The notes beneath the pieces were generated by a model that did not search any database, was not told the origin of the DNA, and saw nothing but the letters and a program-made list of their open reading frames with translations. A program made the translations under genes and the position numbers. Below are positions 2,574-19,528 of a stretch of DNA of 32,000 bases, piece by piece (the stretch's first letter is position 1; every line of letters starts with the position of its first letter). The stretch spans positions 180,001-212,000 of the forward strand of contig CP113000.1 of assembly GCA_026625185.1 (NCBI GenBank), given 5' to 3'. The DNA is from Thermodesulfobacteriota bacterium. Lineage in GTDB: Bacteria; Desulfobacterota; WTBG01; JAGOGO01.

Positions 2574-3026
2574 GATCAACATCCTTCCCTTCAAAGGGAC
2601 CGGCTCAGTGAGGCAAGCCGGCAAAAATATTCCCCTTTCGTGCATTTATTGGTGAACTTATGAAATTACCTAATTTTTTTATTGGGTGATACTACTAATT
2701 TGTAACCTAAAGTACATTCAGATAAATTTATTTAAAATTATTATTCTATTTTTACTATCTTAAATCAAGAGGAAATCAAAAGACCGTTTTTTTAATAAGT
2801 TACCCGGCATCACCCGCTCATCCTTTATTATTGATGAAACCGTAAAATTATTGCGCTCTGGTATAAAATCAGTCCGCTCGACACCGTGCCCGAGGCATTA
2901 AAAGTGCTGGAAAATTAATCCGCAGAAGTAAAAGGATAAAATAAACTCTTTGAAATCAATGGCTTTTGCCTTAGCGGCAGTAGTTCCGTTTGTGCTGATC
3001 TTATGTCTGGTTTTCAAGAGGTGAGG

Positions 3027-3455
3027 TCATGGCTTTGTACTATCCAAAAGCTCCGTCTCGTCGAGCTTCCAGAGACCATCTTCCAGGACCAGATGTTCTA
3101 TGTTGTGCTCTATCAACCCATTTTTATTACATTCGTCCCGGGAATTGACAACACTGTTCACTTGGGCTTCTTGCCCCGAAACCAGTCCGGGAGTGGCGGA
3201 AACCTCAGTAATCGCTACCTTACCAAATTCAAACATTTTTTTCGTAGTCTCAGCCCACTCTTCCTTGCTTTTATCATTGAGCATTTCCCGAGAAACGCAC
3301 TCAGAAGCCCCTTTGTAGTCTTGGTTTTGCAAGGCATGATAATACTTAAGAACTACCTCACAAGGAGTCAAGCTACCGCTCCAGGCCGCATTCAGGAAAA
3401 AAACAATCAAAGAAAATACCGCTGCCAAAGTAATGCTCCATTTAAATCTTTTCAT
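3027..3455 (-). CDS. Secreted NTF2-like/DUF4878-like small protein
   Basis: Start at ATG 3453-3455 with GGAGG 5 nt upstream. The N-terminus MKRFKWSITLAAVFSLIVFFLNAAWS looks like a signal peptide. It is followed by PCEVVLKYYHALQNQDYK, typical of NTF2-like/DUF4878 proteins. Confidence 0.55.
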   Translation of the reverse strand: MKRFKWSITLAAVFSLIVFFLNAAWSGSLTPCEVVLKYYHALQNQDYKGASECVSREMLNDKSKEEWAETTKKMFEFGKVAITEVSATPGLVSGQEAQVNSVVNSRDECNKNGLIEHNIEHLVLEDGLWKLDETELLDSTKP

Positions 3456-14387: not shown

Positions 14388-17057
14388 TTAGGGAATAACT
14401 GAGGTCTCCTCTGGCTTTACTATGAGAAGGGTATATTTATTAAGGTCTAAATATTTTTTTGCCGCTCTTTTTACATCTTTTACAGAAACTTTAAGTATTT
14501 TATCAAGGTAACTCTCAGAATAATCATACCCCAAGCCATAGCGTTCGTTGAATCCCATATCTGCAGCTATAGACGCATTGGTCTGGTGTTCGATGCTAAA
14601 ATTTCCCACCAAATAGTTTCTGGCTCGTTCTAATTCTTGCGGGCTTACTTTTTCCTCGGTAATCTTTTGGATTTCTTTTTTTATTCCATCAACGGCTTTT
14701 TCCACTTTGGAAGGTTCACAGCCAATATAAAAAGCAATATATCCCGGGTCAATCCCCTCCCAAGCAAAGGAGGTTACCACATATGCCAAGCTCTGTTTAT
14801 CACGAAGCTCGGTAAAAAGTCTTCCTCCCTGACCGGCAAGAATTGTATTTAACACCTCCAAGGAATGCTTATCAGGATTTTTTATATCTACCCCGAAAAA
14901 TCCCAACATTACCTGGGCTTGGGCTTTTTCCCCTTGTTTTATTTCTTTTTGGCGGGAAACAGCAGACGGTGATCCTTGAGATACTGTTGGGTAGGCACAA
15001 GTCAGACCTGAAAATCCATGAAAAAGAGCCTCGACCATTTTCTTAACGTTATCTGCCTTCACATCTCCCACAATAGTGATAACCAGGTTTTTGGCTCGCG
15101 CCAAGCTGCCATAGTATTCCTCCAACTCCCGGGAGGTAAGTTTGCTCACAACGTCTTTCGTTCCTAAAGAATCCATCCCATAGGGCTGGTTTTCAAAAAA
15201 GAAAGCATCAAAATTTTTGCGGATAAAAGAAAAAGGTTGATCTTTCTCCTGGTCAATGGCGGCTATAATATCTGCTCGTTTCTTCGGTAACTCTTCTTCC
15301 GGGAAAGTAGGGTTGATAATAACATCGGAAAATAAGTCTAAGCCCTGATCCAAAAACTGACTTAGGATCGTGCAGGAAACTCCGAAGCTGTTCCGCCCTG
15401 AAAATCCGTTCACCACTCCGGCCATTGATTCAATTTCCTTGGCAATTTCGAGCGCTGAACGCTTCTTCGTTCCCTTCGTAAGCATTTCAGCAATAAAATT
15501 GTTAATTCCATTGTTATCTTTTTTTTCAAAGCGAACCCCGCCCAAGAAAACTGCCTGCATTGAAACAATCGGTAAATTCCGATTTTCCCGAACAACCAAG
15601 GTTATTCCGTTGGGCAAAATAAATTTTTGGGTTACCTGATAAGGAGTGGTCAAAGCCAATACAGACGGCTTTCCCCGCTGAGGAATTGATTCCCTAATCC
15701 CCTCGTATGTTATAGGAGAAGTCTCCTTTGCCGGAACAAGCAGTCCGATGGTAGCGTTTTGGGGAGTAAGATATTTCTGCGCTACTTTGATAATATCCTG
15801 AGCAGTTACCTGATTTACCCGTTCCACATAGGTTTGTTCAAAAGCCACATCTCCCATAACAGATTCAAAATAACCGAGTTGACGCCCTTCGCCCTGGATG
15901 GTTTGTTGACTATAGATAAAATCGCTTGTCAGTTTTAGCTTGGCCTTTTGAATTTCTTCTGAAGACGGTGGTTCATCCTGAATCCGGTAAAGCTCTTGAA
16001 AAATTTTTGTTAAGGCGGGCTTAGCCTTATCCGCCTCCAACAGGCATCCGATCATCATGACCCCGGGATCCCTGGGAGTATATGAAGAAGCATTAATAGA
16101 GTGCACCACCCCTGCTTCCGCCTTTACCTTTTGGTACAGGCGGGACGATTCACCATCCCCCAGGATGGACGCCAGCAGATCCAGCGGATAAAGATCATTA
16201 TGGCTAACCGCTGGTATATGAAACGCCATTTCAAGATACGTTTTCTGCACATCTTCCGACAAAATAACGCTCCGCATTTCTCTTTGTGTCGGCTCGGCAG
16301 GCCGGTTTGGATTTCCCGTCATATGAGAAGTAAAATTCAAAAAGGCTTTTTTTATGGAGTCCAACGCCTCGTCGGATTTAAAATCTCCGGTTACCGCCAA
16401 TACCATGTTATCCGGAGCGTACCATTTACGAAAATATTCCATGGCCTTTGTCCGATCAAAACTTTGCACCGTCTTTTGAAAACCGATGATCGGCCGTTGA
16501 TAAGGATGAACCGTATAAGCAGCGGAAAAAAGCGCTTCATCAAGCTTGGTCGAAGGCTGATCAGTCCTCATTCTGACCTCTTCCAGCACAACTTCTTTCT
16601 CTTTTCTAAGTTCTTCGGGATCAAAGGAGGAGTTTTGAATCGCATCCGCTATAATATCCAAGCCGGAAGAAAAATATCGATTCGGGATCACCAGATAAAA
16701 GACGGTCTGGTCATAAGAAGTAAAGGCGTTGATCTCCCCTCCGGCCGTCTCGACCTCCCGGGCGATTTCGCCTACTTTCCTTTTAGCTGTGCCTTTAAAA
16801 AGCATATGTTCAATAAAATGTGTTATGCCCGCCTCTTTATCCTGTTCATCCGCGCTGCCGACTTTAATCCACATTTGAAAGGAGACAAGGGGAGAAGAAT
16901 GGTTCTCTTTTAAAATTACGGTTAAGCCATTATCCAAGGTATGCTTCTGGATCGGGGAATTTCCCCAGCTCGGCATTACCCACAACATGCTAACCCATGA
17001 GGTTAAACAAAGAATTATCCCTTTTTTAACCGAGGGAAAAAAGAACCTGTTTCGCAT
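14388..17057 (-). CDS. Tandem M16-family (pitrilysin-like) zinc peptidase, secreted
   Basis: 889 aa with an N-terminal signal-like segment. The first M16 unit has the HxxEH motif (GITHFIEHMLFKGT). The second unit lacks the His residues (NNFIAEMLTKGT), as is typical of fused active/inactive pairs. Confidence 0.9.
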   Translation of the reverse strand: MRNRFFFPSVKKGIILCLTSWVSMLWVMPSWGNSPIQKHTLDNGLTVILKENHSSPLVSFQMWIKVGSADEQDKEAGITHFIEHMLFKGTAKRKVGEIAREVETAGGEINAFTSYDQTVFYLVIPNRYFSSGLDIIADAIQNSSFDPEELRKEKEVVLEEVRMRTDQPSTKLDEALFSAAYTVHPYQRPIIGFQKTVQSFDRTKAMEYFRKWYAPDNMVLAVTGDFKSDEALDSIKKAFLNFTSHMTGNPNRPAEPTQREMRSVILSEDVQKTYLEMAFHIPAVSHNDLYPLDLLASILGDGESSRLYQKVKAEAGVVHSINASSYTPRDPGVMMIGCLLEADKAKPALTKIFQELYRIQDEPPSSEEIQKAKLKLTSDFIYSQQTIQGEGRQLGYFESVMGDVAFEQTYVERVNQVTAQDIIKVAQKYLTPQNATIGLLVPAKETSPITYEGIRESIPQRGKPSVLALTTPYQVTQKFILPNGITLVVRENRNLPIVSMQAVFLGGVRFEKKDNNGINNFIAEMLTKGTKKRSALEIAKEIESMAGVVNGFSGRNSFGVSCTILSQFLDQGLDLFSDVIINPTFPEEELPKKRADIIAAIDQEKDQPFSFIRKNFDAFFFENQPYGMDSLGTKDVVSKLTSRELEEYYGSLARAKNLVITIVGDVKADNVKKMVEALFHGFSGLTCAYPTVSQGSPSAVSRQKEIKQGEKAQAQVMLGFFGVDIKNPDKHSLEVLNTILAGQGGRLFTELRDKQSLAYVVTSFAWEGIDPGYIAFYIGCEPSKVEKAVDGIKKEIQKITEEKVSPQELERARNYLVGNFSIEHQTNASIAADMGFNERYGLGYDYSESYLDKILKVSVKDVKRAAKKYLDLNKYTLLIVKPEETSVIP

Positions 17058-17181
17058 TGTGTGCCTCTGATTTAAAATAATGAAAAATTGACGATTTTTC
17101 AGATAGACTCTTTAACAATAAAGAAGGTTCTAAAAAAACAGTAAAAACTTCCTCGCACCCCGTTCCTTGGCACCTCGCCCC

Positions 17182-17412
17182 TTATTTCCAAAACACCTGC
17201 TCCTGATCTGCCTGATTCCAGGAACCATTGTGGGCTTGTTGTTCCTTTGGTTGCTTCTTTTCCTGCAATTTGTGGATAAACCGGGGGGAGACTTTCTTTA
17301 TGGGTAGGAGAGTATTAATATTTTTGGAAAAAATCAAGGTAATAGCGCAGCCATTTTTTATACATTCACTAAAAACTATTAGGAATTGCCCTGTTTCGTA
17401 AATATTCTTCAA
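17182..17412 (-). CDS. Hypothetical 76-aa ORF (weak)
   Basis: Open frame with a TTG start, no Shine-Dalgarno sequence (the upstream is C-rich) and no motif I recognise. Listed only because it occupies an otherwise empty ~600-bp spacer. Confidence 0.2.
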   Translation of the reverse strand: MKNIYETGQFLIVFSECIKNGCAITLIFSKNINTLLPIKKVSPRFIHKLQEKKQPKEQQAHNGSWNQADQEQVFWK

Positions 17413-17674
17413 ATATTGCCGGTAACGCGGGAGGGATGGTCAGCATGAAGAATTCTTCCCCTTCTGTATATCCTGAAAATTGATATGATATCCAGAAGGA
17501 CAAAATAAATGGTTGCAAAAAATTGTCAAGGAATTAATTTTTATAGCAATGAATTTAAAGGAGATAAATAGTATTGGGAATTGCCGGTTAGAAAAATCCA
17601 AACAAAATTTTTGTTTATGTTTCCAAAAGAACCCCTTGTGTTAGGGAGATAGACAGAAACTATAGAATAACTGG

Positions 17675-17704
17675 TTCCCCCCCCCCGCTTCGTTCCGGGG
17701 GGAA
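17675..17704 (+). repeat. C10 homopolymer inside a TTC(n)...G6AA hairpin
   Basis: C run at 17677-17686 (10 C) and G run at 17697-17702 (6 G). TTCCCCCC can pair with GGGGGGAA around a GCTTCGTTC-type loop. This is the longest G/C homopolymer in the window. Confidence 0.9.
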
Positions 17705-17808
17705 TGCGGCAGTTTAGCAGTAAACTCCTGATTTCCCCTTCGCTCCGCTACGGGGAGAACTAGGAGTTGGAGACAGATGCCCTTCGGGCACTGCTCAACT
17801 GCCGCATT
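17703..17808 (+). other. 106-nt inverted-repeat element predicted to fold as a three-way junction (unclassified RNA or DNA structure)
   Basis: P1: AATGCGGCAGTTTAGCAG (17703-17720) pairs with CTGCTCAACTGCCGCATT (17791-17808), 18 bp with one T/C mismatch and the outer 12 bp perfect. P2: AACTCCT (17723-17729) with AGGAGTT (17762-17768), extended by TTTCCCC (17732-17738) with GGGGAGA (17752-17758, one G.U). P3: TGCCC-TTC-GGGCA (17778-17790). The element ends 20 nt before the ORF start at 17828. Confidence 0.5.
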
Positions 17809-17827
17809 GAACGAGAGGATTTGAGTA

Positions 17828-18520
17828 ATGTGCGAGAGTGCTGATCTGAAACGTGTGAATGGCGTTATTGCCCGCTTCTGCCACGATGTCGTCGCGGAGC
17901 CCCTATGCTTTTTCTCGGAAGCAGATCTTCAGAGCATGCTGTTTGCGAAACTTTCAATGGAGTTCCCGGAGCAGATAGAGACATCGTGCTCCAGAGGACC
18001 GGATTCAAAAGGAAAGTACAAGGCTGGTTTGGTCCACCGCGAGTATGGCGCAGGAGGGGGACGCAGGATAGATATTTCGGTGTTCGATCCTGACGATGTT
18101 GCGCGTATTGATGAAGTCACTCTTAAGACTGCCGGCAAGTACATTAAACCTCGCTTCGCTATCGAACTCGGAACAGAGAAATCATTAGATGCAACTGGCC
18201 AAATCAGCAGAGATCTCGACAAGCTGGCCGATGCAACTGAGCGAGGGTATCTCATTCATTTCTTTCGCGACACGAGCCGTTCGGCAGTGGGCACAGGAAG
18301 GAGAGAGAACAAAGAGCAAAGCATCGAATCGAAGTTTAGGAATCCGGTCAATAAGGCTAAGGTTCCTCAGAAAGTCCGCAGCTTGTTCTTCTTAATTCGA
18401 GTTGCCCGAAGGCAGAAAAAAATCTGGGGAAAATGCGAAATGTATTTGCCTGAGACTGGCAAGTGGCAGAAGGTCAATCTACAAAATGTATGCAGTTGCG
18501 TGGCAGAACGCTTGCGCTGA
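17828..18520 (+). CDS. Orphan 230-aa protein with PD-(D/E)xK-nuclease-like motif arrangement (function unknown)
   Basis: Uninterrupted 690-nt frame with ATG preceded by GAGAGGA ~11 nt upstream. The motif order is reminiscent of restriction-endonuclease-fold proteins: FFSEADLQSML (E31), GGRRIDISVFD (D82), RFAIELGTEK (E113, K118), then DLDKLADATERGYLIHFF. The canonical ExK is not exact (ELG..EK). Confidence 0.6.
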   Translation: MCESADLKRVNGVIARFCHDVVAEPLCFFSEADLQSMLFAKLSMEFPEQIETSCSRGPDSKGKYKAGLVHREYGAGGGRRIDISVFDPDDVARIDEVTLKTAGKYIKPRFAIELGTEKSLDATGQISRDLDKLADATERGYLIHFFRDTSRSAVGTGRRENKEQSIESKFRNPVNKAKVPQKVRSLFFLIRVARRQKKIWGKCEMYLPETGKWQKVNLQNVCSCVAERLR

Positions 18521-18526
18521 TAATGT

Positions 18527-18573
18527 GCCAACCACCGCTTGCACCCCATTCGGGGTGAAGCGGATTGTTGGGC
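18527..18573 (+). terminator. Composite hairpin 6 nt after the ORF stop (no U-tract)
   Basis: CCGCTT-G-CACCCC (18535-18547), ATTC loop, GGGGTG-AAGCGG (18552-18563): 12 bp with one bulge. It is enclosed by CCAAC (18528-18532) pairing with GTTGG (18567-18571). It is followed by GCATGAG, not a T-run. Confidence 0.3.
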
Positions 18574-18722
18574 ATGAGAAGGTATTACAACCAAAATGAT
18601 CATAGGTGACCTTAATACAGAGATAGTGACAGCACAGCTCAATCTCTTATTCGGCATAGAGTCGATTTTTAAGAGAAGGGGCAGAATCGTATCGAGCTGC
18701 GAAGACATCGGCCAACTCCTCT

Positions 18723-18920
18723 TTGATCCTACACCATATGATGCCATTCGAACCCTATTACCCCATGTTCCATTCGCACTCATTCAGGCGAGTGGTGAGC
18801 CTCGTAGCAAATTTTCAAAAAGCGATATCACTTGAAGAGATCGTAACTAAATTCCCCGACCTGAAGACCGAGAGGATCAAAGACATTCTGGATAAAGCGG
18901 TTACAGCTGGTTGTTCCTAA
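18723..18920 (+). pseudogene. DUF433-like (antitoxin-type) degenerate ORF
   Basis: The C-terminal part RRVVSLVANFQKAISLEEIVTKFPDLKTERIKDILDKAV aligns by eye to the DUF433 pattern (GTRIPV..IL..L..G.S.EEIL..YP.L..EDI.AAL.YA). The N-terminal DP....GKP..GTR part is not recognisable. There is no SD, and the only starts are TTG 18723 or ATG 18738. Confidence 0.35.
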
Positions 18921-19005
18921 TCATAAGGAACTTGACAGGGGTACATTAAGAGCCATTTTAAGGCAAGCAGATTTAGGGATCGAAGAACTTCTAAAATTAT
19001 TATAA
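18865..19005 (+). pseudogene. HicA-like toxin C-terminal fragment
   Basis: The frame open only from 18865 (after TGA 18862-18864) reads RPRGSKTFWIKRLQLVVPNHKELDRGTLRAILRQADLGIEELLKLL*. This matches the HicA pattern GSH...VP.H..k.L..GTL..IL.QAgL. There is no ATG/GTG/TTG upstream of the conserved part, and it overlaps the DUF433-like frame by 56 nt. Confidence 0.5.
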
Positions 19006-19084
19006 ACTCCCAAATCAGTTTACCGGATTCTTTAAGCCGTCGCTTTTTCAAAATGTCGTCCATCAGCAACAATGACTTCAATAT

Positions 19085-19528
19085 TCATTTCTGTTTCTCA
19101 GAATGAGCAATTTTGTCCAGAATACCATTGATAAAAGAAGCGGATTTTTCAGCGCCAAATTTTTTCCCCAATTCAATGGCTTCGTTTATGCTCACTTTAG
19201 AAGGAATATCATTACACCATAGGATTTCAAAAATTCCCATTCGCAAAATATTTCGATCTACTGATGAGAGCCGATCCAAAGCCCAATGCTCTGAATAATT
19301 CTTTAAAAGCTGGTCTATTTCCCCCTGGTATTGTCCGACTCCTTGGACCAAACGGTTGGTAAAGTCATCTGCTGTTCTGTGGGAGGCAAGGTTGGTAAAT
19401 AACAAAGGAACAACTTTTTTCCCCCGCTGGTTGGTAAATTCCATTTGGTAGAGAATCTGCAAGGCAAGTTCTCGTGATTTTCTTCGACTGGTTGCCAATG
19501 TATAATTTTTAGATTTAAAAGAGCTCAA
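19085..19528 (-). CDS. nusB: Transcription antitermination factor NusB
   Basis: SRRKSRELALQILYQMEF... ends in a typical NusB C-terminus, and the gene sits directly downstream of ribH as in many bacteria. The start is uncertain: TTG 19528 or TTG 19498. Confidence 0.9.
   Translation of the reverse strand: MSSFKSKNYTLATSRRKSRELALQILYQMEFTNQRGKKVVPLLFTNLASHRTADDFTNRLVQGVGQYQGEIDQLLKNYSEHWALDRLSSVDRNILRMGIFEILWCNDIPSKVSINEAIELGKKFGAEKSASFINGILDKIAHSEKQK

Follow-up and report, generated by a model that had tools for sequence, protein, structure and literature searches.

What is the nested inverted repeat that lies directly upstream of a gene for a 230-amino-acid (230-aa) protein in a Thermodesulfobacteriota bacterium? 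The stretch of DNA analysed here (contig CP113000.1, positions 180,001 to 212,000; 32,000 nt, called the window below) contains at 17703-17808 an element with the predicted fold of a three-way junction, and 19 nt separate its end (17808) from the ATG of the open reading frame (ORF) at 17828. A first-pass annotation, made from the letters alone, left the element unclassified and offered four roles for it, namely a leader or riboswitch, an RNA partner of the downstream protein, a retron that had lost its reverse transcriptase and a DNA-level recombination site. Only the last of the four was supported. The three-way junction is quite probably an attC-type integron recombination hairpin belonging to a gene-free mini-cassette of 132 nt (17675-17806).

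Structure, copies and edges of the element

The terminal repeat was recovered as described earlier, AATGCGGCAGTT (17703-17714) being the perfect reverse complement of AACTGCCGCATT (17797-17808). A repeat finder gave arms of 19 nt (17703-17721 and 17790-17808) with 95% complementarity, and the single mismatch is T/C at 17715/17796. When up to three mismatches were allowed, the 19-mer arm was found at two places only in the window, where 0.02 are expected by chance. Folding to the minimum free energy (MFE) returned the three-way junction proposed from the letters, consisting of the outer helix, helix 2 with hairpin 2 upon it, and hairpin 3 (Table 1), and also showed an extra G/C hairpin, hairpin 1, immediately 5' of the junction. 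As RNA, the plus strand folded with -75.4 kcal/mol compared to -52.1 ± 4.4 kcal/mol for dinucleotide shuffles (z = -5.3, none of 200 shuffles being equal), and the minus strand folded equally well (z = -5.2). With DNA parameters the two strands gave z = -6.4 and -7.1. The complementarity had been called far above chance, and both the shuffles (z of about -5) and the expected number of arm matches bear this out.

The structure stands where it was first placed, but the natural unit is larger, running from 17675 to 17806 and including the upstream hairpin. At least 23 copies of this unit with unrelated flanks on both sides were collected. These are the window copy, copies at 20 metagenome loci (compared loci are given by handles such as L046, the locus that has a second copy) and one copy identical in L159 and L160, contigs of 83 kb and 46 kb classed as viral in IMG/VR. 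The metagenome search used the pattern GCGGCAGTT N55-85 AACTGCCGC, which matched at least 120 loci, about 100 by chance; BLAST and motif content served to tell true relatives from the other matches, and the family is under-sampled. Copies in unrelated contexts are 87-93% homologous to the window unit, and the homology always spans window positions 17675-17806, about 125-140 nt, with a sharp stop at both sides. The unit is discrete and mobile. A covariance model built from 20 relatives scored the window copy at 128 bits and 20 others at 110-153 bits, and found one copy in the 32 kb of the window. The second L046 copy (618-743), which was found only by the covariance model, shows compensated changes (GCGGGGCTGAGC/GCTCAGCCCCGC and TGCCCCT/AGGGGCA) in stems that are invariant among the pattern-selected copies. 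BLAST of the element against plasmids and phages gave no match.

The fold is conserved with compensatory changes. In the alignment 97.5% of structure cells are paired, compared with 32-44% in slid controls; double-sided changes affect 11 pairs (52 cells), against at most 4 pairs (7 cells) in the controls, and the covariation score of 0.210 compares with a control maximum of 0.044. Helix 1, the upstream hairpin, also has double-sided compensatory changes, for example UA/CG at columns 7:30 (7 sequences). The AAY/RTT triplets (column pair 34:141) covary, being AAT/ATT in 14, AAC/GTT in 5 and AAT/GTT in 1 of the 20 aligned copies, and AACCAGGAGTTCRAGAC is the block with the highest conservation in the family. 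Loss of the stems in homologs had been named at first as an argument against a functional RNA. The stems are maintained across the family, though this does not favour RNA because the same is equally expected of a DNA hairpin used as a recombination site.

The edges of the unit were then compared between loci. At about 10 loci the left edge starts directly after the G/TT of an imperfect-palindrome attC with a RYYYAAC box (mostly GCCTAAC) 60-130 nt upstream; the heuristic attC scan applied to these left flanks is crude, flags palindromes on both strands and was used as a pointer only. In L097 the left flank together with its GTT shows 96% identity to an attC region that is annotated under sat2 or beside aadA cassettes in more than 5000 plasmids. 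The right edge is GC(A/G)TTA with the crossover at R/TT. In two pairs of loci, L123/L127 and L055/L137, left flank and element are identical and all similarity is lost right after RTTA. The bases following the crossover fit TTARRY in most copies, and unrelated plus-strand ORFs start 2-80 nt past the junction, with products that include AbiGi, a PD-(D/E)xK protein, a Mrr-type nuclease, an FMN reductase and several unknowns. Neither a reverse transcriptase nor a transposase adjoins any copy. An attC-type site explains both insertion exactly at the G/TT of an ordinary attC and the different cassettes found from TTA onward.

Several copies lie in recognisable integron surroundings. In L044 a divergently oriented integron integrase (TIGR02249, 382.5 bits with a cut-off of 265) is about 650 nt from the copy. 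The L046 array reads ORF, canonical attC, mini-cassette, ORF, and its two copies share one orientation, with about 880 nt between them. In L159 the next canonical attC is co-oriented with the element, to which the flanking ORFs are antisense; therefore the orientation of the element follows the array and not the gene. The left flank of the window copy resembles those of L101, L123 and L127, the similarity being confined to the last 30-35 nt or so before GTT, and all of these arrays begin with the mini-cassette; on this alignment the flank (17645-17674) may be an attI-like or entry site.

Other details of these arrays were seen in passing. L159 has, at 2200-2361 and 2942-3077 (minus strand), an element copy and a weaker second copy about 740 nt away, with canonical attC-like sites, and the antisense arrangement of its adjoining small ORFs is one that toxin-antitoxin cassettes typically show. 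One array in L046 holds two degenerate relatives of the element (reverse strand, oriented 315-405 and 2006-2090). One is without hairpin 1 and comes immediately behind the stop of an ORF; the other, a hybrid, has a 5' half like an ordinary attC (GCCTAAC...) and a 3' end, CGGCTCAGCCCCGCATTA, with the same sequence as the 3' arm of the mini-cassette next to it. Such sites suggest rearrangement between the two site types. A promoter-like GTAACA-17-TACAAT occurs in L123 at 1109-1081 (minus strand, the orientation of the element), about 90 nt upstream of the mini-cassette, and may be a Pc-like promoter for this integrase-less array; further upstream of it, L123 and L127 have a YkwD-family gene and no integrase.

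Anatomy of the attC-like site

An attC site is a hairpin with two inverted integrase-binding boxes, called L-box and R-box (PMC11641012). The same order of boxes can be read in the element, where GTT...AAC of the stem forms the L boxes and the R triplets are placed 6 nt further out on both arms (Table 1). The element, of 106-114 nt, falls within the length of hairpin-forming attC palindromes (about 55-141 nt), and its L box is inverted to the R box across a spacer that lies within the usual 5-8 nt or so. The next cassette follows past G/TT, as seen at the right ends of the two locus pairs above and in the left starts at canonical attC sites. A co-oriented array and intI were found in L046 and L044; the window itself is without integrase. 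The element resembles the attC sites known as 59-base elements, such as those of aadA7/sat2 and the Vibrio cholerae repeats (VCR), which are also imperfect palindromes, 55-140 nt long and located at a cassette's 3' end, with inverted R/L boxes, spacers of about 6 nt, AAC/GTT-type triplets near the stem base, a variable and sometimes branched terminal structure, a G/TT crossover, co-oriented arrays, and structure kept rather than sequence. VCRs are alike within one array, whereas copies of the element are about 90% identical across many unrelated arrays. In the comparative data the attC-like site behaves as a recombination site, and it is a putative substrate of an integron integrase.

Binding and cleavage by such an integrase, and the strand that would be active, can be predicted by analogy with attC. 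The imperfect palindrome would fold when the DNA becomes single-stranded during replication, conjugation or transformation. Integrase monomers would then bind the R box (AAT/ATT in the window copy and AAC/GTT in some others) and the L box (GTTGAGC/GCTCAAC) near the stem base, the boxes being 6 bp apart and the two inner hairpins serving as the variable terminal structure, and strand exchange would occur at R/TT. The cassette opens with bases (TTCYCC; TTCCCC) that complement its own R'' box. Such complementarity is to be expected of a cassette that forms a circle, its R' being restored in this form from its own 5' end, and in a linear array the same pairing gives the upstream hairpin.

Within the terminal structure the left half of the site occurs a second time in degenerate form, because the region of hairpin 2, with GAGAAC-CAGGA-GTTCGAG, is paralogous to hairpin 1 with GAGAAY-GCGGCA-GTTGAGC, that is to R''-spacer-L'', and so is an internal duplicate of the 5' part of the element. 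The alignment score of the two parts was 23 in L097 (shuffles -7.3 ± 3.9) and 11 in the window copy (shuffles -10.5 ± 3.8). The duplicated regions are 17675-17718 and 17730-17776 in the window, and the same regions are duplicated in L097 and L101. Helix 2 begins again with AAC...GTT and resembles a nested miniature attC.

A number of features weigh against an attC-type site. In canonical attC sites the central spacer is unpaired and 2-3 bases are extrahelical, features that bias recombination towards the bottom strand (PMC11641012), but neither was found in the element family, in which helix 3 has 18 contiguous pairs in most copies, 99.2% of cells paired and no conserved bulges. The R-box triplets are rightly placed and covary, but R'' is the purine-rich GGRGAAY in place of the conserved RYYYAAC, and AAT/ATT replaces AAC/GTT at the cleavage position in 14 of 20 copies, that of the window included. 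The 5' end of the cassette is TTCYCC and not TTRRRY. The invariance of GCGGCAGTT and AACTGCCGC is uninformative, as the search pattern fixed nine bases at each stem end. Within the terminal structure, which also differs from known attC sites in its internal duplicate, AACCAGGAGTTCRAGAC is more conserved than a variable terminal structure requires, and this hints at an additional or different function. The 132 nt of the cassette, with a cargo of only about 13-20 nt beyond the recombination site, are far below the sizes usual for cassettes. An integrase is near a copy in only one related locus, L044. No Phage_integrase or IntI domain was found in the window among ORFs of at least 100 aa, and the rest of the 32 kb is housekeeping.

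Table 1. Positions of the features discussed, in window coordinates
Feature	Position	Strand	Basis or remark
Mini-cassette, ORF-less, 132 nt	17675-17806	+	TT after left crossover to A before right crossover (GCA/TT)
Hairpin 1 (CCCCCCC / GGGGGGG)	17681-17702	+	MFE fold; compensatory changes
attC-like site	17699-17812	+	Box order and 6-nt spacers read from sequence; crossover between 17806 and 17807
attC-like site, 5' arm	R'' GGGGAAT 17699-17705; spacer GCGGCA 17706-17711; L'' GTTTAGC 17712-17718	+	
attC-like site, branched terminal structure	17719-17792	+	
attC-like site, 3' arm	L' GCTCAAC 17793-17799; spacer TGCCGC 17800-17805; R' ATTGAAC 17806-17812	+	
Family 5' arm			R'' GGRGAAY, spacer GCGGCA, L'' GTTGAGC
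Family 3' arm			L' GCTCAAC, spacer TGCCGC, R' = RTT + next cassette
Helix 2 (AACTCCT / AGGAGTT) bearing hairpin 2	17723-17768	+	MFE fold
Hairpin 2 arms TTTCCCC / GGGGAGA	17732-17738 / 17752-17758	+	MFE fold
Hairpin 3 (TGCCC-TTC-GGGCA)	17778-17790	+	MFE fold; 3 of 4 pairs with double-sided changes in family
Candidate micro-ORF, MPFGHCSTAALNERI then stop, 15 codons	17777-17824	+	AGGAG 17762-17766, 10-nt spacer; runs through attC 3' arm
Left flank (GGAGATAGACAGAAACTATAGAATAACTGG)	17645-17674	+	Ends in G of left G/TT crossover; alignment with L101, L123, L127
Island, 1941 nt (1.94 kb), integrase-less	17139-19079		Between M16 peptidase gene and nusB
M16 peptidase gene	14388-17057	-	
nusB	19085-19528	-	
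Ordinary integron gene cassette with 230-aa ORF (17828-18520)	17807-18567	+	L021 homology limits
Canonical attC of ORF cassette	18526-18573	+	R'' TGCCAAC, R' GTTGGGC, crossover 18567/18568
60-aa ORF, weak DUF433 match	18738-18920	+	Pfam E = 0.003, below curated cut-off
HicA C-terminal fragment, 27 codons	18922-19005	+	HicA_toxin E = 1.6e-4, profile positions 39-58 of 58 only

Other functions considered

The mini-cassette may do more than recombine. ORF-11 of attI1 couples translation to first cassettes that lack a ribosome-binding site (PMC8876359), and it is possible, though rather doubtful, that the mini-cassette is a portable analog of ORF-11 and works as a translational coupler, a role compatible with that of a recombination site. 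In the mRNA, a micro-ORF with AGGAG, 10 nt and ATG would read through the 3' arm of the hairpin and stop at or just past the crossover, so that it would unfold the hairpin and hand ribosomes to the next cassette, often one without its own ribosome-binding site. Of 23 copies, 17 have AGGAG and then, exactly 10 nt on, an ATG. The micro-ORF has 11 codons in L046, L055, L080, L101 and L130, with a stop codon (TAA/TAG) on positions 3-5 of the core-site RTTAR, and this geometry equals that described for ORF-11 of attI1 (PMC8876359). The stop abuts the next start in L101 (CAT TAA ATG), and in the window 3 nt separate the stop TGA (17822-17824) from the ATG at 17828. Of 20 downstream ORFs, about 8-9 begin no more than 13 nt past the junction, which leaves no room for a Shine-Dalgarno (SD) sequence of their own, and L044 keeps CCAGGAGTT though the 5' strand of its helix 2 is non-complementary. 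Against a coupler, in nearly all copies helix 2 holds the SD base-paired, an ATG is missing from that place in 6 of the 23, the frame and the peptide vary with the length of hairpin 3, and several micro-ORFs end at least 30 nt from the next start or overlap it out of frame. The conserved block is also explained as the degenerate internal copy of R''-spacer-L''.

Like ORF-11, ORF-17 and ORF-18 of attI1 (PMC8876359), the micro-ORF has an SD and an ATG and crosses the recombination point, and as in ORF-11 the stop codon comes from positions 3-5 of the core site of the next cassette; unlike them it lies in the attC of a mobile cassette and not in a fixed attI, its SD is sequestered, and it is not found in all copies. 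The mini-cassette could then conceivably be a mobile expression helper, an attC with an ORF-11-like micro-ORF that is gated by SD/anti-SD pairing and shuffled in front of cassettes that are promoter-distal or lack a ribosome-binding site, though this is rather less probable than not. In a weaker version it would be a selfish minimal cassette, the smallest unit that an integrase can move, seeding attC at non-integron loci such as the nusB-M16 spacer. Gene-less cassettes are known; some were shown to act as promoters, and effects on the expression of neighbouring cassettes have been proposed (bioRxiv 10.1101/2023.11.21.568050; PMC8876359). Like those of Vibrio superintegrons, Treponema and Xanthomonas, the mini-cassette has an attC without a protein gene and is interspersed in arrays, but its 125-140 nt or so are nearly all attC, whereas the known examples are promoters or small RNAs. 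A consensus scan of the window and L097 found no sigma-70-like promoter inside the element.

It is improbable that the unit is instead a small non-autonomous transposable element unrelated to integrons, either palindrome-associated of the IS200/IS605 type or a miniature inverted-repeat transposable element, which would insert 3' of GTT in DNA hairpins and depend for its movement on a transposase from another locus. The small, dispersed and highly structured unit would suit such an element, as would insertion that is always directly 3' of (G/A)TT without visible target duplication, and the copies in the window, L072 and L153 are beside ordinary genes and not attC sites. However, insertion falls exactly on the crossover that the integrase uses in canonical attC sites, downstream cassettes are exchanged at the right end as at a recombination site, and the stem has the R/L box geometry. 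The lack of a transposase beside any copy, the integron integrase neighbouring the copy in L044 and the single copy in the 32-kb window also argue against it.

Improbable too is a structured RNA that regulates the downstream gene in cis (as a leader, riboswitch or thermometer) from its 5' untranslated region, selected at the RNA level and mobile only incidentally. A very stable structure with compensatory changes, a same-strand ORF starting 2-80 nt downstream in most copies and the SD/anti-SD pairing of helix 2 would all fit such an RNA. G:U wobbles suiting a plus-strand RNA (11 cells) also exceed those of the A:C type (4 cells), though these cells are too few and too non-independent to decide between RNA and DNA. 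The element precedes at least 18 unrelated genes, however, the products listed above having no function in common, and its edges are integrase crossover points. The neighbouring genes in L159 are antisense, the minus strand folds as well as the plus strand, and the real SD of the window ORF, GAGAGGAT, is outside the structure. No Rfam family was matched at the gathering score in the whole window, and with E <= 10 in 17500-17900 the best was Vault with 14.9 bits (threshold 34, E = 2).

The leader and partner-RNA ideas of the first-pass annotation were dropped because the element is missing upstream of homologs of the ORF. It was not found upstream of 15 genomic loci with homologs 34-57% identical, nor upstream of about 10 metagenomic loci that include homologs 71-85% identical, and none of the 22 other copies of the element is accompanied by the 230-aa protein. 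Between the window and L021, which has an 85%-identical homolog of the ORF, DNA homology extends only over about 17803-18535, covering the ribosome-binding site, the ORF and a few bases past the stop, and the break falls between element and gene. An RNA, type III antitoxin-like or guide-like, that works together with the 230-aa protein, or the msr-msd of a retron without reverse transcriptase, is hardly credible: its sole support is the location directly 5' of a protein of unknown function together with the nested inverted repeats, element and protein family do not travel together at any other sampled locus, there are no tandem repeats, and no reverse transcriptase was found by Pfam on 10 downstream ORFs, in the ORF lists of all loci or in the window.

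The island and the neighbouring gene

The attC-type site lies within an island that is foreign to this chromosomal position. In relatives with NusB 88-93% identical (L154, L156 and L157), nusB and the M16 peptidase gene are 115-184 nt apart, and BLAST homology of these relatives to the window ends at 17138 and resumes at 19080. Thus 17139-19079 is an insertion that replaced about 30 nt of spacer, because the homology breaks there and the relatives have empty sites. The same island, identical in sequence upstream of the ORF, is present in contigs from several samples. Its left part, about 0.5 kb ahead of 17645, is unassigned, and the small ORFs of 17139-17640 gave no NCBIfam or Pfam match that would mark an intI remnant.

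The window ORF is an integron cassette itself, as judged from the limits of the L021 homology and from its own canonical attC. The bottom strand of 18526-18573 shows R-box pairing, an unpaired spacer and one bulged base (-17.8 kcal/mol, z = -5.2, none of 200 shuffles), and the site was also flagged by the heuristic attC scan, again as a pointer only. In L021 the homolog of the ORF is flanked by attC-like sites at 2270-2365 and 3102-3164. Beyond this cassette, 18738-19005 contains decayed toxin-antitoxin remnants of a kind common in cassette arrays (Table 1).

If the first site is taken as an attC, 17699-17812 and 18526-18573 are two attC sites close together with no intI nearby, the arrangement of an attC site cluster that lacks integron integrases (CALIN). 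The island fits a CALIN-type remnant or an off-site insertion in a Desulfobacterota-like genome, and any further movement would require an integrase in trans. Off-site (attG) insertion by IntI1 at GWT motifs has been described (bioRxiv 10.1101/2022.09.11.507474). The island shares with CALIN, with single attC sites lacking integron integrases (SALIN) and with attG insertions the two attC-type sites, the absence of an integrase and the housekeeping region, and its left junction, G/TT, fits GWT. It differs from attG insertions in being bigger than two cassettes, with about 0.5 kb of other sequence on each side, and in replacing about 30 nt of spacer; therefore it is not a clean two-cassette insertion at one GWT. 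An IntI1-like off-site route at GWT motifs is compatible with these data but not proved by them.

The island splits the tight nusB-M16 arrangement of the relatives and is oriented against it. A sigma-70-like site in the island at 17529-17502 (minus strand; TTGACA-16-TATTTT, 10 of 12) points at the M16 gene and could now drive it. The left part of the island also has two direct copies, 86% identical and 195 nt apart, of a 21-nt motif, TAAA(A/T)A(C/G)TATT(A/G)GGAATTGCC, at 17370-17390 and 17565-17585, the second being followed by GGTTAGAAA.

The 230-aa ORF had been called an orphan, a description that no longer applies: its family has at least 55 protein clusters with 35-100% identity, found in Acidobacteriota, Planctomycetota, Myxococcales, Bacteroidales, Haloplasma and DPANN archaea. 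The invariant residues are E24 P25, FSEAD 29-33, HREYG 70-74, R80, D82, E113, G115 T116 and K118. No sequence match to the family was found in Pfam, NCBIfam, PADLOC or PDB. The AlphaFold (AF2) model of the protein is confident (predicted local distance difference test, pLDDT, 89.7; predicted template modelling score, pTM, 0.89), and Foldseek of this model against PDB gave no match at E <= 0.001 (template modelling score, TM, about 0.2). A PD-(D/E)xK nuclease was considered from a D...ExK-like motif but is not supported, there being no match in Pfam or PDB by sequence or in PDB by Foldseek. Homologs are often beside defence-type genes (AbiJ_NTD4, Mrr_cat/PLD, NucS_C), and in L003, L006 and L008 the homolog is the second gene after a conserved upstream ORF. 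The protein is a candidate for a new cassette-borne defence or toxin gene product.

For annotation, the structure upstream of the 230-aa gene is to be read as the scar of a mobile element in a small foreign island and not as a dedicated regulator of that gene. The mini-cassette family is widespread in environmental metagenomes. If the attC-type reading is true, a site with a fully paired stem and an AAT/ATT core has apparently been recombined repeatedly in nature, and this would bear on how far an integron integrase truly needs an unpaired spacer, extrahelical bases and an AAC triplet. A cassette could then be reduced to about 130 nt and yet reach many arrays and non-integron loci, and such a minimal cassette would be relevant to the origin of integrase-less attC clusters. 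The SD-ATG micro-ORF that ends on the crossover would, in addition, be a candidate for a mobile version of ORF-11 of attI1.

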